From assembly GCA_964016885.1 (NCBI GenBank), contig OZ024741.1:346394001-346458000 (forward strand): DNA of 64,000 bases, in the 5' to 3' direction. The stretch comes from Eledone cirrhosa (taxonomy: Eukaryota). Made by a program: the position numbers and the translations under genes. Positions 8,675-61,950 of this stretch are shown here, piece by piece. The notes under the pieces were generated by a model. It was not told where the DNA came from. It saw nothing but the letters and a program-made list of their open reading frames with translations, and searched no databases. How positions within the stretch are numbered: the first letter of the stretch is position 1; every line of letters starts with the position of its first letter.

Positions 8675-10531
8675 TTTGGTGTTGAAAGTGAAGAAAGAAA
8701 AGCACCTACCTCTCCGGGTTGTGTAATTTCCATGGCGTCAGGTGTGTTGGGTGGAGGGATGTTTTGTGGTGGTGTGGGGGTACCCGAGTGTGGTGGGGTT
8801 GGGGTATTTGGAGTTGTGTCAGGGAGAGGGGAGGTTACGGGGAAATCTTTCAAGAGGACGCGATTTAACGGTTTTAAACAGGGGGGGGGGGCTCACGCCC
8901 TGTCTAAATTGTTCTTTTAAGGAGCGATAAAGGTCCAGAGGGACCTTTATCATTTTTAAATGGGTGAAGTTCTCTGTTGAGATAAAGTTTGGCCCTTCAG
9001 TCTGTACCAAAGGGCTATTGTTTATTAATTTAAACAGTTTTTTGTTTTCTTTATTTATATATGTGTATTGCAAAGTCTTTTTTTGTGATGCTGTCAATGT
9101 TTCGGAGAGGGGAGGCGCAGATTTATTTTTGTTTGTCGAGGGTGGGGTGTTTTTGATTGGAGTTGGTGTTTGTGTGTGGGTTATTTGTGGTGTGCTGGGT
9201 GTGTGCTTTCTTTTTTTTCTTTTAACTTGTCTGAAGGCTTCTCCTCCTTCTTCTTCAGAAGTTGGGGGAAACTCTTCAGCGCTAGGTGGGAGGGACGTGG
9301 TGTCTGGTTGTTTTTTTTTTGCGGGATGGGTAGATTTGTTGCTGTTTTTTTATTATTTGTTTGAATGCGTTTTGTGGTGGTGGTGATGATGTTTGTGTCG
9401 TGCTTGTGGTCGGTGATGGTGATGGTGGTGGTGATGTTTGTGTTGTGGTTGGTGATGGTGGTGGTGATTTTTGTGTCGTGCTTGTGTTTGGTGGTGGTGG
9501 TGGTGATGTTTGTGTTGTGCTTGTGGTTGGTGGTGTCTGTATTTTGTTTGCTGTGTGTGGTATTAGTGTATTTTTGGAGGTGGGTGGTGTTGGTGTACTG
9601 TTTGTGGTGGGTGTGGGCAATAGTCCTTTTTGGGGGATACGTTTCGGGCAGTTAGCCTTAACGTGTCCCCTTTCCGTGCATAAATAGCATGCTGGTCTTC
9701 TCCCCTCTACAATTATATATATTGGGGTGAGGTCATCCAGCCAGATGCGATCCGGGATTTGTGCTATTCTTTCGGGCCTCATTTGGACTAGTAGGTCGAG
9801 GCCCATTCCCAGGAACGCATCTCCAGATGCCTTCCCCATTGACAGCACTGTGTCCTCGCCCATGTCTATGAAGCCAGCAATAGCCCACCAGAAGTCCATT
9901 GTGGGCAGCATTGTTTGTATTTTGACTCTCTGTGTTCTTCTACCCATGTAGGAGGGATAGAAGCTGTATGTTGTTGATGAGAGTGGGCTTAGGGAAAGCT
10001 TCTGGGCTGTTTCCTTGTCTTTTGTTAAGACCGAAATCCTGCCATAGAGTCGGTCCTTTCGTATGAAGAGAATATTCTTCATATAGTCTTTTAGGACCAA
10101 CTCTATCTCCATTTGGCTGGGCTGTGCTGGCTTTCTCGTTTGGTTTAGGATTGTTCTGAAGAGAACTGTGCTCTCTGTTCTCGCTTTCTTGAATTCTGGG
10201 GGGGGGGGGGGGGGGGGTTAATGGAAAACATTCCGTTCTCCCCCAAGACTATGTGTTTTTTTGCTTCTGCCAGTTTTTCTCTGGCGGCAGTTAAGTCTAT
10301 TGGTGTATATATTATGGATTGTTTTGTTTTCTGGGCGAAAGTTGCCTTGTTGTTATTTGTATTCTTATTTTCTGTTTGTCTGTTTTCCGTTTGCTCATTT
10401 TCCGTAACATTTGTTTTTTCATTTTCCTTGTTTGTTTCGTTGTCTAGTTTTGTTGTATCTATTTTTTGTTCTTCAGACTTGGGGGGCGTGGCAGAGCTAA
10501 TGGCAGACATGTCTGCCATCTTTTCCGCCAT
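8671..10531 (-). pseudogene. Tx1 ORF1 (gag-like, CCHC zinc knuckle, Pro/Thr-rich tail); frameshifted
   Basis: ORFs 10145-10531, 9282-10112 (EGRRPACYLCTERGHVKANC), 8819-9097 and 8671-8853. Homologous to ORF1 of copy B. Confidence 0.85.
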
Positions 10532-15238: not shown

Positions 15239-15462
15239 TTCAACTCTTTCCTTCTTAAGGAACTTAATAAAAACTATAAAAAACTATACCCTCCAGTGTA
15301 AACTTACTTAACCGAAAAGCCCAGGCTTTGGTTAAGGACTAGCACCTGGATAGATTTACCCACCCTTATGCACCAACAACCCCAAGGTTTTCTCTCAAGG
15401 AGCATAAGCCAAACTTAATAGAGAACCCATCTATTAGACTTATAAACCCAACCACATCCGAC

Positions 15463-17275
15463 TTGGGTCGTATCAGTAAGAACATCCTTGATAGAATCAT
15501 CCCCAAGCTACGAGATGATATCACCTACAAGTTGTGGTCCAACACCGGGCAAGTCATTAGATGGTTCTCCGATCTAAGGTCCAAGGAATCTACGAGGTTC
15601 ATCCAATTTGACATTGACAGCTATTACGCTTCAATAATCCCGGAACTGCTCAACAAACCATTAACCCTAGCCAGCACCAACTCTGACATAACCAATAATG
15701 AGATTGACATCATACTTATGGCTAGGCAGACCATCATTGAATTTAACAGAACACTCTGGACTAGAAAAGACAGAACAGACAACTTTGACATCACGATGGG
15801 CTCAAGTGACTCTGCGCAAATCACCGATTTAGTTGGAATTTACCTATTAGATAACATTAGAGCCGAAATCCAACCCTTGCAAGGCGGAACATACAGGGAC
15901 AACGCTCTATTTGCAGTCCACAATTGCACTAATCGAGGCATTGACTTGCTCAAAAAACAATTACAGAGATTCTTTAAAAATAACGGTCTCTCTATCACCA
16001 TCGAGCAGAACCATAAAGTAGTAAACTTCCTAGACGTTACACTGGATCTTAAAATAACCTATATTACCCTTACCATAAACCAGGTGAAATACTTACATAT
16101 ATTAGCCCACACTTTAACCACCCACCTGCAGTCATCAGAGCAATAATCAAATCTATCTCGTATAGGATCTCCATGCTATCAGCAAATGAGGAGATATTTA
16201 TAAACCATGCAGCATATTATAATAAGGCTCTTTCTGAATCTGGTTATGAACAGTCCATTTACTACATACCTAAATGCCATAACACAGCAATTCACCACAA
16301 CCATAATAAACTTAACACTAGAACTAGAAATACCTTAGCATATAGCCAGATTCGCCGGAATTTTAGCAGTAACAGCACTTATACAGGGAACCTTAATGGT
16401 GGCAGTGGCCTGCTTCCGACTCCAAGTAGCAAACTAAAAATCAACCCTAGAATAGGAATGAGCAATGGGATGACAAATAACAAATGCCCAGGTAATAATA
16501 ACCCTATGAAGGCCCCTACCAACTCCACTAGAACCCCTAGAAGGAATAGGCCTAAAAATATCACCTGGCTTAACCCCCATTCTCATCTAATCTAGCCACT
16601 AATATCCCTAAACGCTTCTTCTCTATCCTATCTAAACATTCCCCTCCCCCAATCATAGATATTACAAACTCTTTAATAAAAATAACATTAATATCTCATT
16701 TTCCATAACACCTAACCTAGCTAGCCACATCCCATTGAGTAACAATCATAAACTAAGACAGTATTACTCCCACACCGCGGTACCACCACCCCCATCAAAT
16801 ACACCACACCACTACACCAATACTTACTCTAGTAGCACACCTCCCCCATCTAATCCTTCTAGCACTGACCAACCGCTTAGGTTAAACAACCCTACTCTCA
16901 CTAACCCCAGAAGTAACTGCAACTGCCGTTACCCTAATGCATGCTCCTATATCGGGTTTACCTCTAACCCTTTTAAGGTACGCTATAACGCGCACTCTTT
17001 TTCCTTCCGAGACCCTAACAACAGATGTTCGACATCTCTAGCTAGGCTCATTAAAAACCTTAAATTAACCAACATGATCACTCACTAATATGGGATATCT
17101 TGGCTAGGGCCCAACCGTTCAATGGACGAAGAAAATCTTGTGACCTCTGTCTTACCGAAGCATATTACATAACTCTATCACGACCTCTACCGATTAATGA
17201 TAGAATGGTGGTAACTATTAGCTGTCAACATCGAAAGGATAATTCCTTCGCCAATAGAATATTTGACCCAACATA
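15463..17275 (+). pseudogene. PLE polyprotein (RT plus GIY-YIG), frameshifted
   Basis: FIQFDIDSYYASI, FDITMGSSDSAQITDLVG, GGTYRDN (DD changed to DN), VNFLDVTLDL, NHAAYYNKALSESGY, NITWLNP, CNCRYPNAC/SYIGFTSNPFKVRYNAH, CDLCLTE. Confidence 0.9.
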
Positions 17276-23600: not shown

Positions 23601-23830
23601 GACTTTCTATTTATTTGCCACCAGGGCATCAAAGATTGGGACAAATACAAGAGGGGGAGTTTACATACATTTCAAGGGACGTGTAAAAACATATAACAAA
23701 TCAAATTCAACAATCGAAGTCCTCCAATAGGAGGGGGCGTTGACGTAGGTCGCACACACCCCTGAAAAGATGTGCAACCCTCCTCCTCAGGAGCACAAAG
23801 AGCGGGTGCTCCCTTCCTCTCCTCTCTCAC

Positions 23831-26800
23831 CTACAGGCTGATATAGAGAGAAGGTCCATTCACTCAGGCCATTCTCGCCACTGTCACCCACCTTTCATAA
23901 AACTTGCTGGGGTAGGGAACCTCTCTCTCCATTCTGATCCTTCTTCTAAAATGGTATTTGAAAAAAAGGACCAGTTGTTGGCCGGAGAGAAAGGTGTCTG
24001 ACCCCAGCCCTTTCAACCTCGTCCACCATACAACCTCTTTAGCCATGGCTATCACACAGAGGGAAAACCGCCTCTCCTTCGTTTTTGAAGGGGGGAGGCG
24101 GTTTGATCGTGACAATGTACTCGGTGGTCAACCGGATTGGTCCCACCCGCGACAGTAGTCGTTCCACATAGTCCCACAGGTCAGCAACGCCCGGGCTTGT
24201 ACGAATGCGTGCTTGACGGTTTCCACGTCACGCACGCATCTTGGAGAGATCTTTTTCGAGGAGTCCCTCCTCGGGCGCCCGTGTCTGTAGAGTTTGTCCC
24301 GAACGGGTAGAGCTCCTCTGTATCACTGCCAAGCCAGGGCCTTTTGAAAGTTGTCCATCGGTCCTGGGCCAAACGTCCTACCCAACAGACTGGCTAGTTC
24401 TTCTTCCTCCATGCGCTTAGCTTCTCCGAGAGCGTCGACGCACTTGCTGCGCACTAACCCTTTATAGAATGTCGAGGTGGAGTCTCCACTCATTGCCGGA
24501 TCAGCTTGCCAGAGGGCCATGAGCGCCTGGGCACATTCAATGTGCCAGTCACCCACTTTTATCGGTCTTTGCTTGACCCAGGATTGCAGTTAGGTGGGCG
24601 AGACGAGTCTCGGAAAGGCTCGCCTCACAAAAGGGGCCCAAAACGGTTGACCGGTGAGGAATATCTGGAGGTGCCGTAGCCTTAATGCGTCTTTACGCAT
24701 GGTCAGCCATGGTAACCCCAGCCCTCCGTTCGAAGGGTGTTGACAGCAGATGGATCTTCTCACCAAAGGGGCCCGCTTCTTCCAAAGGAATTGGAAGAGC
24801 GTGCGCCCCATTTTGGCGAGCGTTTTCGCTGGGCAAGGCACGATGGTCAAGCGGTAGTAGATGACGGACGCTAAAGAAGTGTTGGCCACCTCCGCTCGAC
24901 CTTTCAGGGATAGTTTGCACTCGGTCCACTTCTGGGCGAGTGCAAACACCCTGCCCGTTACTTCGTCCCAGCTTTTCTTCACCTGGAAGTCTGTTCCGAA
25001 CCAGACCCCGAGCAGCTTCACCGGTCCCATCGTCCAGCGTCCGACGACGCCGTCGCAGGGCATCAGTTTGCCTCTCCACGTTCCGAGATGCAAACCGACG
25101 GACTTGTCCGGTTCAGCTTGGCTCCTGTAAACATTTCGTATTCCTCCAGTAAGGTGCCGATCTCCCCGATTTCCGACGCACACGACACCATTACTGTCAC
25201 GTCATCGGCGTAGGCCGACACCGCTTTCCGCAATCCCGGTTCCAAGGGGATGCCCTGTAACAGCTCCAACTTCTGCAGTAGTGGCTCGAGAGCCAGTACG
25301 TACAGAAGGGAGGAGAGAGGGCATCCCTGTCGGGTGGATCGCGTGATTTGGAACGGCTCCGAGAGGTAGCCGTTCACGTTGGCCCTCGAACAAATGTTGC
25401 TGCTGTGTATTGCAGCAATCCGGTCCCTGAAAACGGGCCCGAAGCCTGCCGCCGCGACACCACATCCAGGTACCGATAGTCGACCCTATTGAACGCCTTA
25501 GATTGAACCAAGTTGATCAGGGCCCCACCCAAAGCCGGGTTCACTCCCTACCCTCTCTATGATGTATCGCATGAGGTGGAGGTTGTCGTGTATGGACCTG
25601 GACGGGATTGTGCATGTGTGCGCTTCTCCCACCAGGTTCCCGCCGACAAGCGCTAACACCTTGGCCAAAATCTTTAACTCTGTATTTAGCAGAGTTATGG
25701 ATCTGAAGTTATCTATGTCATCCCCCTTGTTCTCGTCCATCCTCACTAGCGTGACTGCGTCCTTGGTCACAGAACTGGGAATTCCCCCGTTCTGTTGCCA
25801 GTTGCAGTAGACCGCCTCGAGGAGATCGGAGAACAATTCCGGAATCGCTACACAAAGTTCGTATCGTAGACCATCGAGACCCAGAGAGTTGCGTTTGCCG
25901 CATCGGCTCAGCGCTTCCCATATTTCAGTGGCTGAAATCGGCCTTTTGCAGGACTTCGCCTCCCCGTCCGAGAGCCGCGGCAGACCGTCGAGGTATGGAC
26001 CGAAATCCATGGTCTCACCGGCCCGCCGCCCCTCCCGAACAGTCGTGCAAAGTGCCGCGCACATCCGCTCAGGTTCAAGGATCCTTCAAAGACCGAATCG
26101 TGGACTTACTTCCACTTTTTGCCTATCATTCGGGCCCAGCTAACAGCTTTGTCTCCCTCCTTACCCAGAGCACGTATTTTACTCCTAACAACGCAGCCCT
26201 CGTACTTCGCGTCAAAGAACTGGTCTAGGGCCGTTCTTGACGCCAGCACGCCGGCCACGTTGCCACACCTAATCGCCTCTTCTACTCTATCTATCAATTC
26301 CCTTTCAGTTCTATTCCTATCTAATGCTAATTCCTGACTAAAACCTATCGATTCTATTCTAATTGCTCTCTTGAGAGAGCCCCACCACCTGCTGTTGACA
26401 ATTTTCCCCATCAAGCGCTGCTTAACTAAAGTGCTAATCCGTTTACTGTAAGCTTTGTTTGTCGGTAAGTACAAGTTTAGCTTCCAGTAACCGGGTCTTT
26501 GTCTATGGGTTCTATCAAGGTTGACTACGCAGGTGATTAACTTGTGATCTGAATAGTTAACCATGAACATTCGTGGACAGTTTAATATGTCCCTATCCTT
26601 ATTTTAAACTAGGAATCTATCTAGGTACGACCTAGATATTCCGCTGCGATTAGTCCACGTCCACAGTGGCACAGTCGGAAAATCTAGTCGATATCTCTCG
26701 GCAAGGTCAAATCGGCCGATTAACTGTTTGAGGCTGTTACACCCCCCTCTATCGGGACATACCCCTACATAATCCCAGCGTGAATCCAGGATACCATTCC

Positions 26801-27223
26801 AGTCCCCCACTAAAAGCAAGGAGCGGGAAGTTCCCAGAAAATCTCTAGACGTTGGAAGAAGTCTGGTGCGCGGTGTCCCAGATGGGGCATACGCTGCCAC
26901 CAGCCTGAAGGCTCCACCTTCCCTACTGCGACGTCTAGAACCACCAGTCGACCCTCTGGGACCAGGTGTACCTTCTGTGTTGCGAGGTCCAGGTGTTTTC
27001 GCAGCAGAACGTCAATCCCACCCCCATCCCCCGGCTGACAGAGAGATGCATAGTTCTCAAAGTCGTCGAAGATGGGGGCCAGTTAGTGCTCGCTGCTGAT
27101 CCTGGACTCGCAAATAGCTATTACATCCATTCTGTGCGACCAGAGGTCTTTTAAGAGTTTGCCCTTCTTCCAGGACATCCCCAGGCCGCGCATATTTAAA
27201 CATCCAACTCTTATAACAGCCAT
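23831..27223 (-). pseudogene. Tx1 ORF2 (APE plus RT), many frameshifts
   Basis: AAYAP, LVGDWN, SYLDRF, YSDH, NFRSITLLN, TRQGCPLS, AYADD, KLLGVWF, GGLGLP. Confidence 0.92.
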
Positions 27224-27264
27224 GTTGGTGGTGAAGAGTTAAAGTGGAGAAAAAGAAAAGACAC

Positions 27265-29061
27265 CTACCTCTCCGTCTCCTGGGGACCAGGCTGCACAAT
27301 TTCCATGGGGGTGTTGGAGGGGTTCTTTGGTGGGGGGGTGGTTTGGGGTGTGGTGGGGACATCAGTGCGTGGTGGGGTTGGGGTGTTTGGTTGGGTGGGG
27401 GTCTCTGGGGTGGTGGTTTTGAAACATTTCAAAAAAACGCGGTTGGAGGGTCTAGTACAGGGATTCCCCACGTCCTCGGGAAAGTTTTGTTCGAGCATTG
27501 CGTAAGTGTCCCTTGGGACTCTAATCATTTTCAAATGCGGTTTATTCGCCGCGTTGGTGAACATTTTCCCTTCGGTTTCCACCGAAGGGTCTTTTTCTAT
27601 TGTTTGTACAAGTGTTTTATTGTTTGTGTTGATGTATGTATAATGTTTTTGTTGTGTTGTGTTTGTTTTAGTTTGTTGTTCTTGTGTGTGTTTGCGTTTT
27701 GTAGTATGTGTTATATTTTCGGGAGGGGTGGTTTTTGTTCGTGATGTTTGTTCTGTTTGTGCCGGTGGTTGTGTATTTGTTGTATTTTTGTTAATGTGGT
27801 GCCTTCTTTTCTTTCTTTTTACTGGTTGAAAGGGCTCTCCCTCGTCGTCACTGGGTGACGTTGATAATGGGTCCTCGTCCGTGTTGTTGGTGAGGGGTAT
27901 ATTTTGTGGTTTTGTTGTGGTTGCGGGTGCTTTTGTATTTGTTTTAAGTGGGGAGGGGTTGAGTGGGACAGTGTCTTGTGTTGTTACTTTTTCGTACTGT
28001 TGTGGTTGTTGTTGTTTGTGTAGTGGTGGTTTTGTTGTTGTGTTCGGGGTTGGCAGAAGAGCCTTTTTTTTGACTCGTTAATTGAGGACAGGCAGCTCTC
28101 AGGTGACCTCTGCTTAAGCAGTGGAAACATGACGGCCGCCTACCCTCAACTGAAATGTTTATATAGGTTAGCCCATCCAGAGGCACGCGTTGTGGGATTT
28201 TAGCTATTCGTTCTGGGCTCATTTGAACCAGAACTTCTACGCTGGTCCTACTAAATACACCTCTGGAGTACTTTCATACTGAGATTATCTGTCCTCATCA
28301 AAATCAATGAATCCACATAGTATCCACCAAATATTTACATTTGGTGTGATACTCATAATTTTTATTTTTTGTGTCCTTTTCCCCCTGTAACAGGTGAAAC
28401 GGGGGGGGGGTACACAATGGGTGATACAGCGTATTTTTGTGCCGTTGGCTGGTCATTCATTAGCACCGAAATGCTACCAAACAGTTTTCCTCTTTGGATG
28501 AAGGTTATGTCCTTCATTGCATCTTTTAGAACCAGCTCATTTCATTTAGTGATAATTGAGCTGGTTTTCTAGTTGCGTTTGATATTGTCCTGAAAGCCAC
28601 AGTTTTCAGGACAGTATCTCTACGTAATACTTGGGGAGAATTGATGCTATAAAAGCACCGTTTTGTCCAAAAGTTACATATTGTTTTGCATCTTGGAGTA
28701 GCAGTTTTGCGTTAGTGATGTCAATTGGAGTGTATAGTTCCTTTTTTTTTACAGTTTGTGCCAAGGATGTTTTGGTGTTGTTGTCTTTCTTGTTGTTGTT
28801 ATTGTTGTCACTGTTGTTGATGTTGTTCATATTTTCCTTGGTGTTGGTGTTGTTATTGTTGCAGTTGTTGGTTGTGGTGTTATTGTCATTGTTCTTGTTG
28901 TTGGTGCTGGTATTATTTCCCTGGTTTGGTTCCGTGGTTGCAATATTGACAACGTTTTTCGATAAGGCGAGGGGGGAAGGATGTAAGCCTACCTTCCTTC
29001 TACCACTTTTCTTAGTGGGCGTGACATTCACTACAGCGTGAAAGGTTGAAATGGCATCCAT
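27265..29061 (-). pseudogene. Tx1 ORF1 with CCHC knuckle; frameshifted
   Basis: YTPIDIT (copy A has YTPIDLT), EGRRPSCFHCLSRGHLRAAC, HLKMIRVP (copy A has HLKMIKVP). Confidence 0.85.
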
Positions 29062-29372
29062 TACTAACTAACAAGTCTACACAAATTTTTCAGTTGAAAA
29101 TTTCGCCCCAAAAAGGGGCGAAAATTAGTTAACCCAAAGTCTGAAGGCCCAGACGAGGGGTTAAACTAAACAATAATAACAAATTCAACAATAAACTCAC
29201 AGTTTTTTGTACAATAATCCGTAAAAAATCCGGAGCGAAGTAATACACGTCTACCAATCAGGAAGATAGATAGATATATATCTAGTCAGATACAAGGCAA
29301 TTAGATAGATGTTTATTTATTGTCAGAATATATGGAGGACAGTGTTCTGACCATTGGCCGTCGCATATCTCC

Positions 29373-34031: not shown

Positions 34032-37000
34032 GTTGCATTTATCTTGCTTTATGTTCATACGAGTTATCACCAAGTCACAACCAGTGACCTCAAGAGACAA
34101 CAAGGTCCGCCATGTTCAAGAAAGAACATACATATTCACACATGCATCTTTAGTGTTTAGACTTGTGATGTACTTATATTGACAGAATCTTCCTTAGTAT
34201 ATAGGCAGTTCCCATTAGTACTATCTTTTGTATTTCTCCTATACGCGGGTTTCCTGGGATTTGCGATAAGTAATCATTAGACCCCTTAGGTATCATTCCC
34301 AGAGCGCCTACAACCACTGGTATTGTTTTAGTTCTCAATTTCCACATTTTTCCAATTTCTATCTCCAGGTCCTTATACTTGCTCAATTTTTCAAATGTTT
34401 TTATAGATACATTCTTGTCTATTGGAACAGACATATCAATTAGCAGGCATATCCTCTTTTGAAAGTCCTTCAATATTATATCAGGTCTATTTGCATCTAT
34501 TTTTCGGTCTGTTTGGATGCTAAAGTTCCACAAGATTGAGATGTGATCTTTTTCAAGTATGGGAGGTGGTTGATGCTCCCACCAATTCTTTTGATGGGGC
34601 AGGTCAAAATGCTTACACAAAATCCAATGTATGTATTGTGCAGCTCTTTCATGCCTGTTTAGGTATTCGGTTGGAGCTATAGGACTGCACATTGAAATTA
34701 TATGGTCAATGGTCTCTGGTTGTTTTTTGCATACACGGCATAATGGGCTGCATCCATTTTTTATTATGTTGGCTTGGTAATTTGTTGTTGGCAGACATTG
34801 ATATTGTGCTGATATAATCAGTCCTTCAGTCTCTGATTTCAGTCCAGAGGATGCCAACCACTGATGAGTTAAAGTTTTGTCAACATCAGGAATGTTAGCT
34901 CGCTCTGGGTATTTTCCATACAGAGGCTTTTCTTGCCATTTCTTAGCCAGTTTCTGTAGCAGTTCTTTCTTTGCAGTTACTTTTACCTGCTTTGCTTTTT
35001 CTGTGTTTTCCATTTCAGCAGTAAATGGGACTTCTGAAATTTGTAGTCCATTACTGTATCTTTGTGCATCTTTTGTAATGGAATATGATCTTTTGATGCT
35101 TTCGTGTTTCAAAACGAGTTTGATCATCCAATCATGTGATTCCCTTAGATATGTAGATAATCCAATTGTTGCAGTTTTCAACGCAATGTCTAACTGGATT
35201 AACCCACGTCCTCCTTCTTTCCTAGGGAGATATATTCTATCTATATCTGCCTTAGGGTGATGCATTCTGTGCATGGTTAAGAATTTTCGAATTTTTGTAT
35301 CGAGCCTACGGATCTCTGTGCTTGACCAGTTGATGACATTGTAACTGTATGTTACTACTGGTATGGCAAGCGTTTTTATGGCATCGATCCTATTCCTTGC
35401 ATTCAATTCCGTTCTTAAGATTGCTCTTATTCTGCGGTAACATTCCTTCCTTATCCTTTCCCTCATTGTCGAGTGCTTGATTCCGTCTCCTTCACAAACA
35501 CCTAGATATTTATAAGTTTTTTCTTGATCAAGTTCTCTTATCACGTTCCCCCGATCAAGATTAATGTCTGAACTCTTCAGCAGCTTTCCTCTGGTGAACG
35601 TTGCTTTGGCGCATTTATCTAGTCCAAACTCCATTTTAATGTCATCACTGAACTGCTCCACAGTGGATAATAGCCCTTGCAATTGTTCATCATTTTTTGC
35701 AAATAGTTTCAGGTCATCCATGTAGAACAGGTGATTAATGGTTTTATCATAGACTTTATATCCATGTTTTGTTTCATTGAGCATTTTACTTAATGGTATA
35801 AGTGCGATGCAGAATAAAAGCGGTAATAAAGAGTCACCCTGAAAAATTCCACAATTAATATTAACTTCTCCAGCTTCCAGTGATTTTGTTTCACTATCCC
35901 AAAGGAATGTCGTTTTCCATGTCTTCATACTGAATGACAAAAACCTCCTGACAACGGGGGATATTTTGAAAATCTCTAAACATTTTTCAATCCAACTGTG
36001 TGGCAAACTATCGAATGCTTTTTTATAATCTATCCAAGCAATCGACAGATTTTTGTGTCTATTATGACAATCTTCCAGTATCATTTTGTTAACCAGAAGC
36101 TGATCCTTACAGCCATATGAGCCTCGTTTACAGCCTTTCTGCTCAATGGGAAATAGGTCATTTGTTATCAGGTGGTCATATGTGTATTCAGTTAGGACTG
36201 ATGTTAAAATTTTATACATTGTGGTCAAGCAAGTTATCGGTCTGTAATTTTTAGGATTGTTTGTCTCATCATTCTTCAGAAGCAGGAATGTAATGCCGTT
36301 AACTAGCCATGATGGTATCTTTTCTGGCTCCTTTACTATTTCATTGTAAAGTTGGGCTAACAGCTCATGAGACTCTGTGAAGGCATTTATCCAAAAGTTT
36401 TGTATTTTGTCTTTTCCTGGGGATTTCCATTTGCTGGTTTTTCTTAGAGCCAAGCGCAACTGTTCAACTGTTATATTTTCCCATATTTGTTCCTCAAGGT
36501 GAGCCTGTTTCTTTCATTTGTCTGTCTATCCATGGGCATGTATGTTATGAACTTTTTCTTCGGCCCAGATCTTTTCCCAGAATTCTTGCACTTCCTCCTT
36601 GGGTGGTATTGATTTAGCACTTATTGTTGACTTACCAATTTTTCTGTAGAAGTTTCTTTGGTTGTTTTTGAACATATTATTGTCCTTATAGAATCTAGAT
36701 CGTTTTTCAAAGCGCCTTATACGAGCAGCTTTGGCCGACACTTTTTGCTTGATTATTTCTATCAGCATGTCTATGTCACATGTTGATTTTATACTGTACT
36801 TTTTTTTCAATTTTCTAAGTTTAGTTTGTTTAACATGTTCACCTACTTTATAGTTTGTTAAAAGTTCTATGTCAGATCGGAGAAGGTTTATTTGGCGATT
36901 GATGTTTTCTTGCCAAGTAGATTTCTTGTGGGAATTCCTTTGTTTTTTCATCCTCACTCCACATAAGTGAGTGGTGACTTTAGCCGATGCATAATAGAGA

Positions 37001-37514
37001 TGATTTAAATCAGTAATGTTTAGTTTGTCTGTGATGATAATGTTTTTGAGAATTATGTTAGTCTTGTGTATTATCTTTTGGTTCTGTTTGGAGTTCTGGA
37101 TCTTAGGGAGGGTGTCTCGTTGCCCCATGTCAGATTCTTTCATTTTCATCCATTCGATCATAATTTCATCCTTCAAGTTGGCAAGTTCATTCTCATTCAT
37201 TTCTTTATCATTTACGATCTCATTATTTTCATTTGGAGTTTCATCCTGAGCATGCACTCCCTCCACTTTTTCGATCCTTTCTTTAATTTGTTCTGTTGCC
37301 ACTGATTCCGCCCCAACCCTGGGATTTAAGTGTTACAGTTTACCTCGTTTTCACTGACACATGTTTCATTTTCCCTTCGCTGACTTTGTACTAATAGCTT
37401 GATCTGATCAATTTCTATATCAGTTAGTAACTTTTTTCTTACAATATTTCTTCGTATATTGGCTAGTTTGTTACTGTCAATATAGCCTCTGTTTTCGGGA
37501 TGTTTCTTTTTCCA
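34030..37514 (-). mobile_element. R4/Dong-clade non-LTR retrotransposon, 5' truncated, with (TAA)n tail
   Basis: Single-ORF layout RT, CCHC, restriction-like endonuclease. The 3' end runs into (TAA)n, the known Dong target. Confidence 0.92.
34174..36459 (-). CDS. Dong/R4 polyprotein C-terminal part: RT, zinc knuckle, PD-(D/E)xK endonuclease (761 aa open)
   Basis: WKSPGKD, NYRPITCL, IDYKKAFDS, GIFQGDSL, YMDDLKLFAK, YKYLG, GGRGL, CRVC..ETIDHIISMC, RPDIILKD..LLIDMSVP..EKLSKY. Upstream parts (36526-37302, 37326-37514) are frameshifted. Confidence 0.93.
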   Translation of the reverse strand: MRLALRKTSKWKSPGKDKIQNFWINAFTESHELLAQLYNEIVKEPEKIPSWLVNGITFLLLKNDETNNPKNYRPITCLTTMYKILTSVLTEYTYDHLITNDLFPIEQKGCKRGSYGCKDQLLVNKMILEDCHNRHKNLSIAWIDYKKAFDSLPHSWIEKCLEIFKISPVVRRFLSFSMKTWKTTFLWDSETKSLEAGEVNINCGIFQGDSLLPLLFCIALIPLSKMLNETKHGYKVYDKTINHLFYMDDLKLFAKNDEQLQGLLSTVEQFSDDIKMEFGLDKCAKATFTRGKLLKSSDINLDRGNVIRELDQEKTYKYLGVCEGDGIKHSTMRERIRKECYRRIRAILRTELNARNRIDAIKTLAIPVVTYSYNVINWSSTEIRRLDTKIRKFLTMHRMHHPKADIDRIYLPRKEGGRGLIQLDIALKTATIGLSTYLRESHDWMIKLVLKHESIKRSYSITKDAQRYSNGLQISEVPFTAEMENTEKAKQVKVTAKKELLQKLAKKWQEKPLYGKYPERANIPDVDKTLTHQWLASSGLKSETEGLIISAQYQCLPTTNYQANIIKNGCSPLCRVCKKQPETIDHIISMCSPIAPTEYLNRHERAAQYIHWILCKHFDLPHQKNWWEHQPPPILEKDHISILWNFSIQTDRKIDANRPDIILKDFQKRICLLIDMSVPIDKNVSIKTFEKLSKYKDLEIEIGKMWKLRTKTIPVVVGALGMIPKGSNDYLSQIPGNPRIGEIQKIVLMGTAYILRKILSI

Positions 37515-40500
37515 GTTGAAAGCGAGGACATTCAAACAAAGGGGAGATTTTTGAAATGAGCACATTTTGCGTGCCAGAAGATTTGCTTCTGGTCCGAATG
37601 TCACTCAATTCTTTCAAAGAAATTCGAGAGAGCTTTCCTCAAGACGTGGGAAACCCGAATGTGAAACCCACATCAAGACTTTTAAAGGGGTTCCCAAAAG
37701 AAACCCCACCAACCATGGAGGTCGAACCACCCGACCTTCACAAGACCCGGGAGGTAAGTAAACCTTCCCTCTCTCTCTCTTAGCTTACCAATATGGCCAT
37801 ATTAAGAGTAGGAAGTTTAAATGTTCGCGGCCTGGGGTCACCCTGGAAGCAGGGTCGCCTGCTCAACGACCTCCGGTCGCTGGAAATGGATGTGATTGCC
37901 GTAAGCGAGACCAGAATTTCCGACACGCGTGCACTAGCCCCCATTTTCAACGACTATCAGATCTTCGCATCTGTTAGCAGGCCGGGAATGGGGGGTGGGG
38001 TGGCAGTGCTGTTTAGGAAAGGACTGGATCTCGAGGTAAGGTCGATCTTCCGGGACCCGGACGGTAAGTTGTTGGTCTTGGATGTGAGCAGTAGCGAAGG
38101 TGGTGCCTTTAGACTGCTGGCCGCCTACGCCCCTACAGGGGCCGGACGACCTGACTTCTTTAGGCGCCTGGAGACCTTTCTGGGTACGTCTCGCCCTTTA
38201 CTGTTAGCGGGGGACTGGAATGGCATCTTAGACGCACGCTTGGATTGTGTGGGAGTAGCCGATAGGAGCGGGGGTGCAAAAGCCTCAAGCACCTACTCAG
38301 CCAGTTCCAACTGTCTGACAGGTATCGACTAGATTTCCCCAATGTGCCAGTATGGACATGGACCAACCGAATGGGGTCATCTAGATCGTATATAGACAGA
38401 ATCTTCATTAGGAAAATAGATAGAAATAGTGTGGGCTGTCCACTTTTTAAAACGGTCGCCTATTCAGATCACAAATTTGTGATCTGTACGGTCGACCTAA
38501 ATAAAACGCGTAGGTTAGGACCGGGTTACTGGAAGCTGAACATGTCATTTCCGGCACGTAAGGCTTACAGGGACCGAGTCAATAAGTTAGTTAAGCAAAA
38601 GTTGACAGGGGGGATCATCAACAACAGATGGTGGGGAGCTCTCAAAAGAGAGATTAGAGTAACTTCGATAGAGTTCAGCAAAGAACTAGCGTTAGAGAAA
38701 AATAGAAAGGAGGGGAGCTGGTAGATAAGTTAGACGAGGCTTTTTGTAGTGGCATCGCAACTGACGTGCTAGCGGCGAGAATGGCATTAGACCATTTCTT
38801 CAATGCCAAACACGAAGGTTGCATTGTCAGAGCTAAGACGCGTGCGCTGAGAAACGAGGGAACTAAAGCTGTTCGATGGGCCCGCGTGGTGGAGGCGCAG
38901 CGTGGTAATAAAACCACAATTCGGTCTTTGGCGGACCGAGACGGACATGAGATGAGCGATTCCAAGCGGATGTGTGAGGCCTTTCGCTAGCACTTTGCTC
39001 GGTTGTTCGGGGAGAGTGGCGGGTCAGAGAAAGTAGCGGATTTCAGTCCCTACCTTGACGGCTTGCCGCGCATCTCGACGGTCGACGCTGAGCGCTGCGA
39101 AAGGCCGATTACTTCAGCCGAAATTCAGGACGCCCTTGTCGGCTGCATGAGGCGCAAGTCACCAGGCTTGGATGGCCTGCCCTACGAGCTTTACGTAAAT
39201 ATGCCAGACATGTTCTCCGAACTCCTTGAAGCACTCTACTGTAACTGGCAGCAGAATGGGAGTATTCCCAGTTCTGTGAGCTGGGGAGTGGTGACGCTGA
39301 TAAGGAAAGACGAGAACAAGAGGGATGCATTAGACAACTTCAGGCCCATAACTCTGCTCAACACAGAGTTTAAGATTTTGGCCAAGGTGTTAGCAAAGAG
39401 ATTGGCGCTTGTCGTCGAGGATTTGGTTGGGGAGGCGCAAACTTGCGCAATCCCAGCCAGGTCCATACACGACAATCTCCACCTCATGCGATACATCATA
39501 GAGAGGGTAGGGTGTAAACCTGGCTTCGGTGGGGCACTGATCAATTTAGATCAATCGAAAGCATTCGATAGGGTCGACCATCGGTATCTGGAGTTTGTCC
39601 TCAAAGCAGCTGGCTTCGGCCCTGTCTTTAGAAGCTGGATCGTTGCAATGCACAGCGGCACACGCTCGGTGGTCAAAGTTAATGGCCACCTCTCGGAACC
39701 ATTTCGGCTCTCCCAATCAGTCTGTCAAGGGTGCCCTCTCTCTTCCCTTCTGTACGTATTGACTCTCGAGCCTTTACTGCGGAAGCTGGAGCTGTTGCAG
39801 GGCATCCCGCTCAAACCGGGACGTGGAAAGGCGGTGTCGGCTTATACGGACGACATCACCGTGATGGTGTCGAACACCTCAGAAATCGAGGTGGTCGGCA
39901 CCTTATTGAAAGAATATGAAAGGTTGACAGGAGCTAAACTTAACCCGGAAAAGTCGGTGGGCTTGCAGCTCGGAACCTGGAGAGGCAAGCCCATGCCGTC
40001 CAACAGCGTCGTGGGGCGCTGGACGGACGGACTAGTAAAGTTGCTCGGGGTTTGGTTCGGACCAGACCTCCAGGTGGAAAAGAATTGGGACGAGGTAATG
40101 AGCAGAGTAGCCAGTCTCACCCAAAAATGGGCTGGGAGGCAGCTATCACTGAAAGGTCGCGCGGAGGTGGCGAATGCGTACATCGCGTCCGTCATCTATT
40201 ACCGCCTAACCGGCGTGCCTTGCCCCCGTCCGCGCCTCGTCAAGTTGGAACGGCTCCTCTTCAAATTCTTGTGGAGGGGACAAGTTCCGTTCGTGAGGCG
40301 GTCCATCTGCTGCCAGCACCCTCTACACGGAGGGCTGGGCATGCCGTGGCTAATGATGCGCAGACATGCGTTGAGGCTGCGAGATCTCCAGATATTCTGC
40401 CTCAATGGTGAACAGGTGTGGTCGCCGTTTATCAGACGGGCCTTTCCGCAGCTCATTTCTTTGACTGAGCTGCAGTCCTGGGTCAAGAAGAGACCGAGAC

Positions 40501-41487
40501 TGGGTGACTGGCACCTGGAATGTTACCAGGCACTCACTGCCCTCTACCAAGCGGGCAATGCGATCAGTGGAACTTCCACTCTCGAGTTTTATAGAGGATT
40601 AGTGGTGGGCAAGTGCGATGACGCACTCGGAGAAGCTTTGGGCCTCGACGAAGTCGAACTGACCAGTCTGTACCGGAGGACTTTTGAGCCGGGGACGATG
40701 GACAATTTCCAGAAATCCCTCGCTTGGCAGTGCTACCGGGGGGCACTGCCGGTTCGGGATAAACTCTACAGGCACAGAAGTGCTGTCAGACAGACCTGCC
40801 CAAGATGCGCACAGAACGACGAAACCGTTCTGCACGCACTTGTCCAATGTCCGTGCATTACTGACTTGTGGAGTTATGTCGAACAGCTACTGTCGCGTGT
40901 GGAACGAATCCAGTTATCGGCCGAGTCCATAGTGAAGATCGAGCCGCCACCTTCCTTAGGTCAGGAAGAGCAGGACATTTCCCTCTGTCTGGTGGCAGTT
41001 GCGAAAGAGATTATATGGTGGACCAGGTTGAAAGGACTAAAGACAGACACTTTTCTCTTCGGCCAATCCCTCATCAACTTCTTCAAGTTTCACCTGGAAA
41101 GGAGGGTGAGGGTGGAGAGAGAAGTGCTGCCCCCCAGTACATTTGCTAAAAGGTGGGTGAATGTGGCAAGAATGGCTCGTGTGAATGGGCCTACTCTGAC
41201 CATGCGCCTATAGGCTAGCTAACTTGAGGAGAGGGGTGCTCTCCTGGGTGCCCTAGAAGCGCAGGGTGGTTCAGGATTGGTGGGGTACCCGAATCACCCC
41301 AGGGTCGTCCACCCCCTATCGGGGAATTTATTTTGTTATATTTTGCATAGTTTATTTTATATTTTACATTTTCATTGTTAAATTAGTCTTGCCATTGTGC
41401 ACATTTACTCGACCTTATTGTAAATCCCCACTGTCCCTGTCTTTGTATTGTCCCCTACATGTCGGCCCTTGTGGCTAATAAATGAAA

Positions 41488-41761: not shown

Positions 41762-43580
41762 ATGGATGTCTCAGAGTCACTCCTTCCTCACACTCTAACA
41801 CTTCACACCGACACCACCATTGTAAATATTGCTACGTTTGCCAACACTGGAAATCTAAGCAGTAGCAAATTTTAAATTTGTCTCAGGCAGACGTTCATTT
41901 CCCGCCATTACCAATGACTGCAGGTGTTAAAGCCGCCACCACCACCACCACCGCGACAACCACCACCCCCACCACCACCACAGCGACAACAGAAACAAAA
42001 GAAAAAAATAAATTAACTCGTGATATCGAAATGAATTCAACCAAAATGAACTCTTCTACACCGAACACCACAACTGAAACTAAAATTAGCAATAGCAAAA
42101 ATAACGATAACAACAACAGCAACAATGAAATTAAGAAAACTACCCTGAGTTTTGCCAGAGTAGCAAAAACGTGCGAAGCGATCCAGGTAACTCAGGAGGA
42201 ATTAGAAGAAGCCAAAGGAATGGTAAAGAAAGATGGGTACAGGGTCAGCCTCACTCCCCCCACACCTAATAAAATGGAGCAACGTCGCCTATGCACCGTG
42301 TCTTATCGGACAATTAACATAAAGTCGCGCCGAGTGGAACGAGCATCCGAGTCCAAAATCCAAAAAGCTTTGGGACATGTGTGGGCAAAAAACCCCCACA
42401 TCAGACGTGGGCAGAAGTATGGAACCGTGGATGTGTTCTTTCAAACACCACAGGAGGATAGAGAACACTCCATGGCTCCATTAAGAAGTGACGACTTCAC
42501 ACTCGTCCCAAGCTATTGTGGCCAGAGACTTTTGAAGATCAGGGTGACCCACGTTCCACCGGCCATCGAAATTCCCTGGCTAATGGCTGCCGTCCTCGCC
42601 GGCATCGAAGCCAACACCAACATAATTGAAATAGCGAAAGAAAAGCAGGAGAACTGGTCCGGATCTGGGATGGAGCTCCTGATCCAAGCGGACCATAAAC
42701 GCATTGAGGAGATCCCAGAGGTAATATACCTCACTGACGGCAGCCACCTCTCTTACCCACCCCAGTGACTCAACCATCAACACCACCAGCAGCAGAAATG
42801 GCAGAAACAACTGTAGCAGCAACAACAGAAGCAACTGTAACAGCAACAACCCCAGCAACAATAGCAAAACCAACACCATCACCACCTAACGCGCCAGATC
42901 TAGCACCAGCGCCTACACCATCCACCACGCCACAACCAAAACCAAAGCCTGTGGAGGATTTTCCACTCCCCGGCTTATCACAACTGGAGACAGATTGTGA
43001 CGACGAGGAGTGGGAAACGGTATCAGGAAAAAATAAAAAATAAACCAAAAAAGAAAAAATTCTCTTCCAAAAACAAAATACAGAGGGAAACAAATAAATC
43101 ATCAAACAAAAAAGTTAGGACAGATATGCCACCATCCATACCAGCATCACCAACCCCATCACCACAAACACCAACACCATCACCATCATTAACCCCAACA
43201 CCACCATCACCAACACCAGAAAAGTCACCAAAAAGCGTAACAGAAACAACAAACGCAAACAAAACAAAACAACCAAAACGATACACACTACACAGCATTA
43301 AATTTGAACAACAACCAATTATTACACTACATGCAACACAACACCAGCATCACAGAAAAAAGACTACACAACAACCCAAAAGTTCACACCACCTCCACAC
43401 ATACAAATCACTCGCATCACACAGAAAACGTTCATGACACTAAAACAAAAATTCCCCAAAGTCATCGGAGACTTCCGACAAACACACTCCAGGAGGATTT
43501 CTAAGGACATCCTTCCGGAGGAGGCCACAAGCAGTGAAAAGGATGGACAAACCATCCTTCCTCTACGAGAAGTAAGGTAA
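41762..43580 (+). pseudogene. Tx1 ORF1, disrupted; zinc knuckle region apparently deleted near 42755
   Basis: IVNIAT (copy B has VVNIAT), SFARVAK, LVPSYCGQR (copy A has FYPSYMGRR), IEEIPEVIYLTD followed directly by the Pro/Thr tail. Confidence 0.78.
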
Positions 43581-43614
43581 GTGGTCTTTCACATCTTTTC
43601 CACTCCATTTCAAC

Positions 43615-46232
43615 ATGACCTCACTCAGAATAGGCAGCATAAATGCGCGTGGCTTGGGGTCGTCATGGAAGCAGGGCCACCTGCTCAACGACCTCAGGTC
43701 ACTAAACATAGATGTAGTGGCTATCAGCGAGACCAGAACTCCGAAGCACGGGCCTTCGCACCGATCTTCGGCGGCTACGATGTGTACGCATCTCCCAGCC
43801 GTCCGGGATCGGGGGGAGGAGTTGCTGTGCTTTTTCGGAGAGGTTTGGATCTCGCCATACGGGCCATCTTCCTGGACCCAAAAGGTAAGTTGGTGGTGCT
43901 AGACGTGACCAGCGGAGACGGGCAAGCTTTCAGGCTAGTGGCCGTCTATGCCCCGACAGGAGCAGGGCGGCCTGATTTCTTCCGGCGTCTGGAGACCTTT
44001 CTTGGAACGTCCCGCTCATTAGTGTTAGTGGGCGACTGGAACGGGATCTTAGATGCACGCTGGGACTGTGTAGGATTAGTGGATAGGGGAGGAGGTTGCA
44101 AGAGTCTCATCAACCTGCTCAGGCGTTTTGAACTGTCTGACAGGTACCGATTGGATTTCCCGAATGTGCGAATGTGGACTTGGACAAATCGCATAGGGTC
44201 ATCCCGAACATATCTAGATAGAGTATTTTGTAGGGAAATAGATTGGTCTAGCATAGGCTGTCCACAATTCAAGATAGTCAGCTACACGGACCACAAATTC
44301 GTGATCTGTGTGCTTGACTTAGATAGGCTTCATACTGGAAGCTAAACGCGTCCTTACCAGCGCGCAAGGCCTACAGAGACCGGATTAGCGAACTATTTAA
44401 GCGAGCGTTGACGGGGGCCATCGTCAACAACAAGTGGTGTGCTCTGAAAAGAGCAATTAGAATAGAGTCCATTAGGTTTAGTAAGGCTTTAGGAATAGAG
44501 AAAAATAGAGCAGAGGGAGAATTAGTTAGAAAATTAGACGAGGCGCTTAGCAAAGGCATCGCGACCGACGTACTTGCGGCGAAATTGGCCCTTGACCAAT
44601 TCTTCAATGCAAAGTCGAAGGCTGCGTTGTCAGAACTAGGGTGCGTGCTCTCAGACCCGAGGGGACGAAAGCCGTTCAATGGGCCCGAGTGGCGGAGGCG
44701 CGTCGTGGCAACAAAGCCACGATCCGGTCTTTGGTGGACTACGACGGGCGCATGCTACTCGATCCCGGGCAAATGTGTGAAGCTTTTCAGCGACACTTCG
44801 CTCAGTTGTTCGGGGGCAGCGGCGGGCCGGATCGAGGGATGGACTTTAGTGTCTACCTCGACGGACTGCCGCGGCTCTCGGTCACTGAGGCGGAGTGTTG
44901 CGAAAAGCCGATAACAGCCGCTGAAGTACGGGAGGTAATGACTAGCTGCACAAGAATCGCCTGGTTTGGATGGTCTGGCCTATGAACTTTACGTACATAT
45001 ACCAGACTTGTTCGGAGCCCTCTTGGCGGACGTCTATTGCAACTGGCAACAGAACGGGAGAATTCCTAGCTCTGTGAGCCGAGGAGCTGTGACGCTGCTG
45101 AGAAAGGATCCGAACAAGGGGGATAACATAGATAATTTTAGGCCCATAACATTGCTAAACACAGAGTTCAAGATTTTGGCCAAAGTGCTAGTAAAGAGGT
45201 TGGCGCTTGTCGTTGGTGGTCTGGTGGGAGAACGCAGACATGCGCCATTCCCGACAGATCCATCCACGAGAACATCCACCTCATGCGATACATCGTAGAG
45301 AGGGTAGCTAGGGAACCTGGCACGGGTGGGTCCTTGATCAATTTAGATCAATCGAAAGCTTTCGATAGGTTCGACCATCGTTACCTAGCGGCAGTCCTGA
45401 GGGCGGCTGGCTTTGGGCCCGTCTTCAGAGGCGGGATCGCTGCCATGCACAGCGACATCTGCTCTGTGGTGAGAGTGAACGGTCACCTTTCGGAACCGTT
45501 CAACATCATGCACTCGGTCCGCCAAGGATGTCCCCTCTCGTCCCTCTTGTACGTATTGACTCTCGAGCCATTACTGCACAAACTGGAGACGTTGAGAGGG
45601 GTCCCGCGAGAACTAGAATGCGGAAGATCCGTGTCAGCATATGTGGACGATGTCACCGTAGTGGTGTCGAACGCCAAACACATCGAGGCGATCGGCACTG
45701 CACTAAGAGAATACGAAGCGGTGACATGAGCAATGATCAACCAGGAAAAGTCAGTGGGCCTGCAGCTCGGCACCTGGAGAGGCAGGTCCATGGCGTCCAA
45801 CAGCGTCGTCGGGCATGTCCGAGATGCGCGCAGGGCGACGAAACCGTCCTGCACGCACTCGTCCAGTGTCCGAGCATTGCTGACTTGTGGGTTTATGTCG
45901 AACACATGCTGTCACGTGTAGAACGGATCCGTCTATCAGCTGAGTCCATCGTGAAGATTGCCCCGCCCTCTTCCTTTAGCTGGGAAGGGCAGGCAGTTTT
46001 TATCTGTCTGGTGGCCATGGCGAAAGAGATAGTATGGTGGACACGTTTGAAAGGGCTGAAGACGAGCACTTACTTCTTCGGTGATGCCCTGATTAACTTT
46101 TTCAAATTTCATTTAAAAAGGAAAATCAGGGTAGAGAGGGAAATGCTCTCTTCCCAGAATTTTGTTGAAAGATGGGTGAGAGAAGCAAGTATGGCCCGTT
46201 TGAATGGGCCTACTCTGAGTATGTGTCTGTAA
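43615..46232 (+). pseudogene. Tx1 ORF2 (APE plus RT), frameshifted, with about 0.8 kb deleted near 45814
   Basis: RIGSINARGL, AVYAP, GDWN, YTDH, LDQSKAFDR, VRQGCPLS, AYVDD. SNSVVG is joined directly to CPRCAQ. Confidence 0.92.
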
Positions 46233-46447
46233 ATTAAAAGTGGAAAACTGGGAGAGGGCACTTGCCCTGGTGGTCAGGGTCACTGTGGCCTTTTAATGGG
46301 CTTTCTCCACAAATGTCTCTCGGAAGTCTCCCCCCTATTGGGGAATTTTTCATTGTTATTTTTTAGTACATCCTCTGTTTTTTTACACGCAGAAATGCCC
46401 ATTTGTACCGTACTGTTTTGTCAACCCTTGTGGTTAATAAAGAAAGC

Positions 46448-60423: not shown

Positions 60424-61950
60424 TCACGCTGGTTTAAATCTCGTAAATTTAGTAGCAATCCTATATCTGCAGAAACTTGGCCTTTCTATTTTGCTGTTAA
60501 GTTGCATTTTATCGTACCTTAAGATATGTAGCAATTCAAGGTTGCAGAGCCCGCAATGGGACATACCGCTGCTATAGGCCTTTGCGGCCGCTAATTTTGA
60601 CCAGCTAATATTGTAATCAAGGATTTTGTCCTTAAGTTGCCAGATTTTATTGGTGGGGGTTGTAGAATTCACCAGTGCGAGGTTCTTCATTGAATGTCTG
60701 TGGACTTACCACCTTTTTTTAAAAATCACCCGCAGAGGATCCTATGTAGTGCCAGGTGGAGTTGCCCGAGTTTACAGTACACATGTACATTAAGCTAGTA
60801 TCTAGGCACCTATTCCCTAATGGGCACTTATGGTAGGTGGCATTTGCAGTTTGAGGTATTATTCCGTGCAGCTTTCACATTGCGGTTTTGTAAATTGTTA
60901 TATGTGGGTTGCGATTCATGCCTATTGAATTTTTGCTGTGGTATGTCCAGATGCGTTTGTGGTTGTGATACTGTTATGTGTTTGTGTTTTGTATTTGGTG
61001 CTATGTTGTGTATTGGTGGGGAAACTTCCTTAGATATATTTTTGTGGTTGATCTTACGTATGTGCGATTCTATGTTGGCTGCAGTTAAGTATGAAAGTTT
61101 TATAGTTTTTCTATTGAAGATTTTATGGTATATATGAGATGTAGGAAAGTGCGAATCTATTAGTTTAAAACATGTAGAAGGCAGTTTAGTTCTTATAGAG
61201 GAGTTGAAGATCGCATTGAACCATATGTATTTTCTTTCTTTAGTTCTATAGTTTTGAGGGTTTCTATTGTTAGTGCTCTGTTCTCCTACTCTCGGTATAG
61301 TTGTCTAGTTCCATGCCCAGTCCTGTGTCTTTTAGTTTTGTATGAGCGGGTAGTTGTTGATGTTGTCCATATCTGTTATAAACTGCAGCTTTTCTTTGTG
61401 TCCAGCTTTATGTAATGCTGCGTTATAATAATTAGCATGTTCATTAACAATTTTCAGGTTTGAGGATAGGCGGGATATTCTGAGGTATATACTACGTGCT
61501 ATGGAGTTAATTATGGATCAGGGGTGGTTTGAGTTGTAGCTAATGTAGGCTAGATTTTCATTATTTTTATGGAAGGATTCTATTAATCCTCTGTTTAGGT
61601 TTAGAGTTACATCTAAAAAATTTGCCTTTTTAAAATTAAGTTCGAAAGTGATATCTAGGCCTAGTTTTTTGAAGAATGTTCTAATGTTTTTCGTAATTTT
61701 CCATGTTCTGGTTATTTAAGTTTTTAGCTATAAGGAGCGTATCATCTCTATAAGTTCCTCCTTGTAGGTTATTGAATACTTTATGTAAATTATGTGCTAT
61801 AAATATACCCACAACGTCCGTTATTTGCGCTGAGTCGTTCGATCCCATTGTGATATCGAAGCTAATCTTCCTATTTTTCTTTCTAACACCCCTCTCCTAT
61901 AAAAGCCATGCCTTGCGTATCATCCTCATATCCACGTACTCTGATGTATT
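60424..61950 (-). mobile_element. Penelope-like (Naiad-type) element, decayed RT plus GIY-YIG
   Basis: Minus strand FDITMGSNDSAQITDVVGIFIAHNL..QGGTYRDD, closely matching ORF 15463. C-terminus IWQLKDKILDYNISW..CGLCNLE..LNSKIE..CRYR. Confidence 0.85.

Follow-up and report, generated by a model that had tools for sequence, protein, structure and literature searches.

The 64,000-nucleotide (nt) stretch of the Eledone cirrhosa genome analyzed here (the window; GenBank assembly GCA_964016885.1, contig OZ024741.1, positions 346,394,001 to 346,458,000) contains four related copies, A to D, of a long interspersed element (LINE) with two open reading frames (ORFs), and we focus on copy B (23601..29263, minus strand). 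Our main finding concerns two features of these elements: a 5' splice-site motif (D1) kept just before ORF2, and a predicted long-range duplex, here called the zipper, in which the start of ORF2, including D1, pairs with its end. As judged by sequence comparison, a conserved RNA element in a LINE clade is well supported. In addition, we propose that D1 is bound by U1 and is spliced, in a fraction of the transcripts, to an acceptor at or just past the ORF2 end, which would yield a minor ORF1-only mRNA, while the zipper would mask both sites and keep most of the RNA full length; we rate this proposal a little below an even chance.

A conserved donor motif and a predicted long-range duplex around ORF2

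Copy B is apparently full length but decayed, and its 5' edge is approximate. It contains a broken ORF1 (27265..29061, minus; stop TAG at 27267-27265), whose CCHC knuckle region is homologous to that of copy A, and a broken ORF2 (23831..27223, minus), to which apurinic/apyrimidinic (AP) endonuclease, reverse transcriptase (RT) and zf-RVT domains are assigned from paralogues A and C. An AATAAA lies at the 3' end (23610..23615, minus), and ATCT microsatellite runs flank the element. Stops and frameshifts are present in both ORFs, together with indels relative to related records; since both ORFs are broken, copy B is a fossil, and the question therefore concerns its family. The ORF2 regions of paralogues A, C and D are 68-77% identical to that of B and to each other (71% over 3455 nt for B and C), and the ORF1 regions give no blastn alignment.

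In copy B, D1 reads AG/GTAGGT (27263..27270, minus), where the slash marks the boundary that splicing would use and the first intron base is 27268. The donor named in the preliminary description of this DNA is indeed present, as GAGAG/GTAGGT, and the ORF2 ATG follows 45 nt further, at 27223. The last ORF1 frame (27265-28077) has the C-terminus ...QETER and stops on AGG TAG; as had also been noted, joining 27269 to 23830 would give AGG TGA and leave the protein unchanged. In all four paralogues, AG/GTRRGT is found within about 45 nt upstream of the ORF2 start, with first intron bases at 8709 in copy A (motif 8704..8711, minus), 27268 in copy B, 37754 in copy C (AG/GTAAGT, 37752..37759, plus) and 43577 in copy D (AG/GTAAGT, 43575..43582, plus). 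The chance of AGGTRRGT in a 60-nt segment is 0.003 per copy. Over the whole window this sequence is not enriched (12 sites against a shuffle mean of 7.08, with 9 of 100 shuffles reaching 12).

The position of D1 relative to the ORF1 frame varies among the elements. It lies in phase 0 inside ORF1 in copies A and C, where splicing would add three and two codons, respectively, before a stop; it overlaps the stop in copies B and D, which share a splice phase; and it lies past the stop in the distant relatives described below. The difference in phase between copy B and copies A and C had been recognized correctly before. Since this relation changes, the stop codon cannot explain D1. Pairing alone does not explain it either, because the zipper partner differs between families and the +1 G of copy B is unpaired in the best duplex.

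For the interval 27222-27322, public DNA was aligned from two runs of contigs, with 151 and 269 records, and from two runs of raw DNA reads, with 39 and 18 reads. Of the 20 rows with a variant at a frequency of at least 5%, none falls in 27261-27270, a segment that takes in the third, synonymous base of AGG, whereas each of the neighboring positions 27271-27277 and 27251-27256 varies; this invariance is partly an alignment effect that weakens the case, because variant donors of diverged subfamilies are soft-clipped. Donors of other subfamilies, seen in 8 loose-end rows among the 21 of 79 rows listed, read GTGAGT or GTAAGT (reverse-complemented by eye). The variants of copy B-type donors, TAG-GT, TGA-GT and TAA-GT, are all ORF1 stops, so that bases +2 to +4 are doubly constrained in the copy B frame. 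The +1 G (synonymous) and the +5/+6 GT (non-coding) are without that double constraint, yet they are invariant. From these comparisons, D1 looks to be under selection.

Distant relatives were collected by scanning prokaryotic genome contigs, which gave 48 loci with 35-43% identity to the copy C endonuclease, in animal-like DNA of two bins, G001 and G002; no relative was found in the viral contigs, and a single distant locus from metagenome contigs was left aside. These relatives (families M1 to M7) are mostly intact elements in head-to-tail arrays, with a protein identity of about 42%. AG/GTRAGT stands directly after the ORF1 stop upstream of 65 of the 70 ORF2 starts, mostly near-identical array copies that represent perhaps two or three independent lineages. 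The five misses comprise three copies of M7, one decayed copy and one misplaced hit. Conservation of the donor, on which the preliminary description had made its reading depend, thus holds in the four paralogues, in the public DNA records of the family and in the distant relatives. Separately, two ORF1 relatives (P0244 and P0246, 28-30% identical to that of copy A) end in ...EGKS and ...QGK, as would be expected of G/GTAAGT read in the third phase.

The predicted zipper consists of about 80 pairs between arms that are 3.4 kb apart. Its 5' arm in copy B (27197..27293, minus) covers the ORF1 end, the donor, a pyrimidine spacer, and the ORF2 ATG with the first codons, and its 3' arm (23776..23862, minus) covers the last ORF2 codons, the stop and the purine-rich start of the 3' untranslated region (UTR). 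The predicted duplex of 27293-27197 with 23776-23862 pairs the exon end, donor positions +4 to +8, the bases of the pyrimidine spacer, A and G in the AUG, and also the candidate acceptor; that both the donor and the candidate acceptor lie inside a predicted duplex is a point absent from the preliminary description.

This is the best long-range pairing in copies A, B and C, where the junction-by-stop pair ranks 1 of 378, 1 of 741 and 1 of 666 long-range window pairs, respectively; the corresponding ranks are 2 of 406 in copy D, 2 of 903 in M3 and 5 of 903 in M7. When the junction arm is slid along the element, its best partner is the ORF2 stop in copies A to D (z from -3.1 to -6.9), in M1 to M4 and in M7; in the decayed M5 and M6 the best partner is not at the ORF2 stop. 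Relative to dinucleotide-shuffled sequence, copies A to D have z between -4.9 and -5.9, and the five intact relatives between -3.2 and -4.6. Each of copies A to D has its own 3' arm as the best partner; for example, the 5' arm of copy B gives -93.6 kcal/mol with its own 3' arm versus -56.6 to -75.7 kcal/mol with those of A, C and D. When wider arms are used, the stop region of copy D is no longer paired and its donor still is. Among paired-site transitions in public DNA, 11 of 13 keep pairing with the copy B partner against about 8 expected, which in this hand count is not significant.

Further long-range inverted matches were observed in copy D (43448-43484 with 46314-46350), where the match would make the zipper longer on its outer side, reaching into ORF1 and into the 3' UTR, and in copy C (38130-38151 with 41303-41324). 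Editing of the ORF2 stop, by analogy with hepatitis delta virus, was set aside, since the A of TAG is opposite A, not C, in the predicted duplexes.

Candidate acceptors and the proposed splice

The candidate acceptor of copy B (23831..23853, minus) is a pyrimidine tract followed by TAG, which is also the ORF2 stop, at a position homologous to the stop TAGs of copies A and C (ending at 6259 and 41213, respectively). The sequence given for it earlier, ccttctctctatatcagcctgTAG/G, whose final intron base, a G, is 23831 (minus), is correct; a rival AG lies 7 nt upstream. The preliminary description held that ORF2 is bounded by a donor and an acceptor. The donor half of this claim stands, as the donor is conserved; the acceptor half has no independent support, as its AG is the ORF2 stop and its G is predicted to be paired. 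In particular, the first ORF2 codons contain GAGAG, to which the acceptor pyrimidines are predicted to pair, and G/GTG would pair with CACC upstream of the AUG; this predicted pairing to the ORF2 start, together with the role of the A in the stop codon, makes the acceptor doubtful.

By a crude pyrimidine score of our own making, the AG of the stop TAG ranks 1 of 209 in copy A, 3 of 253 in copy B (tied with the AG 7 nt upstream) and 6 of 273 in copy C, so that the acceptor stands out only to a moderate degree. In copy B, the last 100 nt before the poly(A) signal contain no AG, and the main candidates are therefore the stop TAG and the AG 7 nt before it. An alternative acceptor of copy B at 23762 was set aside, being inside a hairpin loop and reading differently in copy A; the small hairpin in question (23748-23771, 3' UTR) has a counterpart in copy A with a different loop. 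Copy D has two rank-2 AGs, 134 and 160 nt into the 3' UTR.

The distant relatives carry signals of this kind beyond ORF2. Among their ORF2 ends, 66 of 68 were long enough to score. A second donor (D2) occurs shortly past the ORF2 stop, as G/GTRAGT in 59 of the 66 ends and as A/GTAAGT in the other 7 (for example, L010:9477-9739 and L075:3025-3168), and a pyrimidine-rich YAG follows 134-261 nt after D2. Since D2 and the downstream pyrimidine-rich YAGs are both present, acceptors do exist beyond ORF2 in the clade. With these signals in all 66 scored ends, the 3' UTRs look as if they contain a conventional intron with an acceptor that could serve D1 as well. At the position homologous to the TAG of copy B, the relatives have TAG in 54 of the 66 ends, TCG in 8 and TAA in 3, and one end is misregistered.

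The acceptor would probably be lineage-specific. The stop TAG of ORF2 is the most likely site for copies A, B and C, with about even chances for copy B if splicing takes place; for copy D and for the distant relatives, the more likely site is a pyrimidine-rich AG that lies in the 3' UTR, 130-280 nt from its start.

In the proposed mechanism, U1 would reach D1 while the 3.4-kb ORF2 is still being transcribed, and the emerging 3' arm would then compete with the spliceosome. RNA that is zipped would stay unspliced and be used for ORF2 translation and reverse transcription, and spliced RNA would supply the excess of ORF1 protein; the zipper would thus act as a brake that protects the genomic RNA. 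A broader version, which we hold tentatively and consider somewhat unlikely, is that of a cephalopod-linked LINE clade with retrovirus-like splicing, in which the zipper would loop out ORF2 and gate the donors on either side, yielding an ORF1-only mRNA and unspliced genomic RNA, to which some lineages would add a bicistronic mRNA without the 3' UTR intron.

Points against splicing and alternative explanations

Several searches were made for the product of such a splice. The joint 23830-27269 was absent among the 15 of 1,764 joints listed from four contig runs (80% likeness; of unrecorded or guessed-DNA kind), where contigs show presence, not absence. Likewise, the copy B 3' exon was found in none of the 12 ORF2-side loose ends among the 21 of 79 rows listed, and the junction pattern had no match in the window with up to three mismatches. 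An ORF1 end joined to the 3' UTR was found neither in the window, nor in the arrays, nor among the DNA rows listed. Two apparent candidates were rejected: the short array units of G001 are 5'-truncated copies, and in G002, an ORF1 end that lacks an endonuclease match belongs to an unspliced copy in decay. A further search, for ORF1 proteins whose C-terminus would reflect the splice, gave one distant match and 140 representatives, of which none was close enough for the ends to be compared. Cis preference predicts that ORF1-only genomic copies are rare. The lack of such DNA copies says little, because an ORF1-only RNA would be without its own RT and because only part of the rows was listed.

The following points weigh against the splicing proposal. 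The splice itself is putative, and the TAG acceptor can be fully explained by the stop codon and the pairing. The acceptor AG at the ORF2 stop is missing from copy D, which stops on TAA at 46232, and from 11 of the 66 relative ends (those with TCG or TAA). In M7, the zipper is retained together with the splice signals of the 3' UTR, but the ORF1 end has only CT/GTAATG, and the zipper is weak in two decayed relatives (z of -1.0 and -0.7). The arrays examined in G001 and G002 contain no ORF1-only unit. In human L1, moreover, a conserved donor is mostly not spliced, according to the portion of PMC5860796 that we draw on.

The principal alternative, which we consider rather unlikely, is that D1 is an unspliced landing pad for U1, which would keep the RNA from being cleaved and polyadenylated prematurely within the A-rich 3' half of ORF1, or would aid full-length transcription. 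This would account for a donor that is conserved beside an acceptor that is not, and 8 of the 11 elements (A, B, D, M2, M3, M4, M5 and M6) do have an A[AT]TAAA hexamer at a distance of 278-418 nt upstream of D1. In human immunodeficiency virus type 1, U1 acts in this way downstream of a poly(A) site. At the donor of the Arabidopsis retroelement EVD, U1 inhibits premature termination, as stated in the part of PMC5580714 used here. However, the correspondence between hexamer and donor is imperfect: M1 has D1 without such a hexamer within 2.6 kb upstream, and M7 has a hexamer at -138 but no D1. In all 11 elements, hexamers are scarce downstream of D1, with none within 680 nt and 0-2 in ORF2. In addition, a zipper covering the donor would oppose lasting U1 binding, and the 3' UTRs of the relatives have donor and acceptor signals together.

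Alternatively, the zipper may be the sole functional element, setting ORF2 re-initiation or keeping the 3' end close to the ORF2 start so that newly made ORF2 protein binds the RNA it came from, with the splice-like motifs as by-products of stop codons and pairing. We regard this explanation as quite unlikely. The duplex covers the ORF2 AUG and persists in M7 without D1, the copy B-type donor variants are without exception ORF1 stops, and SART1 needs a downstream structure for translational coupling (PMC5972666, in the part consulted). Against this, the donor stays constant although its frame context takes three forms and its partner bases differ, and the +1 and +5/+6 bases of copy B, which are synonymous and non-coding, do not vary. 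The explanation that the signals are due to chance, or are an inherited relic without function, fits the absence of window-wide enrichment, a dead copy B and the lack of an observed junction, but it is largely refuted and very improbable, since the motif is site-specific in four of four paralogues, whose flanks cannot be aligned, and in relatives with a protein identity of about 42%, and since the pairing is cognate-specific.

Family, known systems and significance

Copy B is an L1/Tx1-type retrotransposon that lacks long terminal repeats (non-LTR), with an ORF2 that encodes an AP endonuclease, RT and C-terminal zinc finger and a separate ORF1 with a CCHC knuckle. Exo_endo_phos, RVT_1 and zf-RVT domains were found in paralogues A and C, and zf-CCHC in ORF1 of copy A (E 0.005, below the curated cut-off), the homologous motif being visible in copy B. 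The closest named proteins come from Argonauta hians (65%) and Acanthosepion pharaonis (50%), matches that point to an octopod host. Against copy C, Xenopus Tx1 ORF2 scores 246 bits and human L1 ORF2p 152 bits. In an RT tree of 25 rows, copy C joins the Argonauta protein (99/99), the sister group consists of the cuttlefish protein and the distant relatives, and the joint clade has a support of 100/99; the link to Xenopus Tx1 is unstarred (92/95) in this tree, which is without mammalian L1. Copies A and B lie in ATCT/TA runs, and copies C and D end in ATT runs, although this concerns four copies only in a microsatellite-rich window. The bit scores favour Tx1, and we tentatively take membership of Tx1 proper as likely.

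The distant relatives in G001 (contigs C3-C19; loci L002-L047 and L049) comprise about 70 intact animal LINE copies, head-to-tail with a period of 6.4-6.9 kb, in a bin labelled bacterial. These arrays are host DNA in a reference prokaryote collection, and their self-adjacent arrangement is unusual.

Within the window, the ORF2s of copies A and D have internal deletions. In copy A (at 7077-7082), about 1 kb including the RT core is gone, and a single 770-aa frame is still open across the break; in copy D, the deletion is around 45812-45818. A small hairpin occurs in the 5' UTR of copy B (29102-29125), and copy A has a similar C-run/G-run hairpin. Adjoining copy C is a further non-LTR element (34174-37332, minus) with a 779-aa RT frame that matches RVT_1, which looks to be of the R4/Dong type. 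The frames 15343-17088 (plus), 60828-61304 (minus) and 50946-51410 (minus) are presumably Penelope-like RT pieces and a Helitron-like piece.

The nearest known counterpart is shGAG splicing in Ty1/copia elements. In the relevant sections of PMC5580714, splicing of Arabidopsis copia EVD yields an excess of structural protein, and U1 also prevents premature termination. The two systems are alike in having a strong, conserved, U1-consensus donor near the end of the structural-protein frame, and splicing here would likewise give a structural-protein-only RNA beside the unspliced genomic RNA. However, EVD is an LTR element with a short intron coupled to premature termination, and its splicing was demonstrated experimentally. 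The LINE here is a non-LTR element with a putative splice and no A[AT]TAAA close behind D1; splicing would take out all 3.4 kb of ORF2 and leave the normal 3' end in place, with both sites under a predicted long-range duplex.

Among LINEs, the microsatellite-targeting Tx1-clade elements Kibi, Koshi and crocodilian Tx1 share the ORF2 domains, the ORF1 knuckle and possibly microsatellite insertion; the part of PMC4494074 consulted describes no splice signal or zipper for them, and the LINEs here form their own strongly supported group with the Argonauta and Acanthosepion proteins. Human L1 RNA also has conserved splice sites, as in SpORF2 (PMC2896524) and SpIREs (PMC5860796), and masking of its 5' UTR donor by structure has been proposed in these two sources, as far as the sections used go. 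In those same sections, however, L1 splices from the 5' UTR, which removes ORF1 or promoter sequence and is called a dead end, whereas the donor here stands at the ORF1 end and ORF2 would be removed. The proposed end product has the structure of HAL1 (half-L1), namely ORF1 without ORF2; from the excerpt of PMC5753468 used, HAL1s are non-autonomous genomic families, unlike the LINEs here, for which no ORF1-only DNA copy was seen among the rows listed. The accessible main text of PMC13282606 and PMC9115989 does not contain 'splic'. In a literature search that mainly covered open-access papers, without most subscription papers, Repbase Reports and supplements, no ORF2-removing intron or ORF2-spanning duplex in a LINE was found.

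A LINE requires ORF1 protein in large excess over ORF2 protein. The solution that is known is a single bicistronic RNA with inefficient re-initiation; for L1, splicing has been described as harmful. If the splicing proposal is true, a donor would have been kept for removing the whole enzyme gene, gated by a co-evolving long-range duplex, which would be a second solution to the need for excess ORF1 protein, convergent with those of copia elements and retroviruses. It would also provide a direct route to ORF1-only, HAL1-like elements. Even without splicing, the conserved predicted pairing of the ORF2 start with the 3' end could be used to test by what means ORF2 protein locates the RNA that encodes it.

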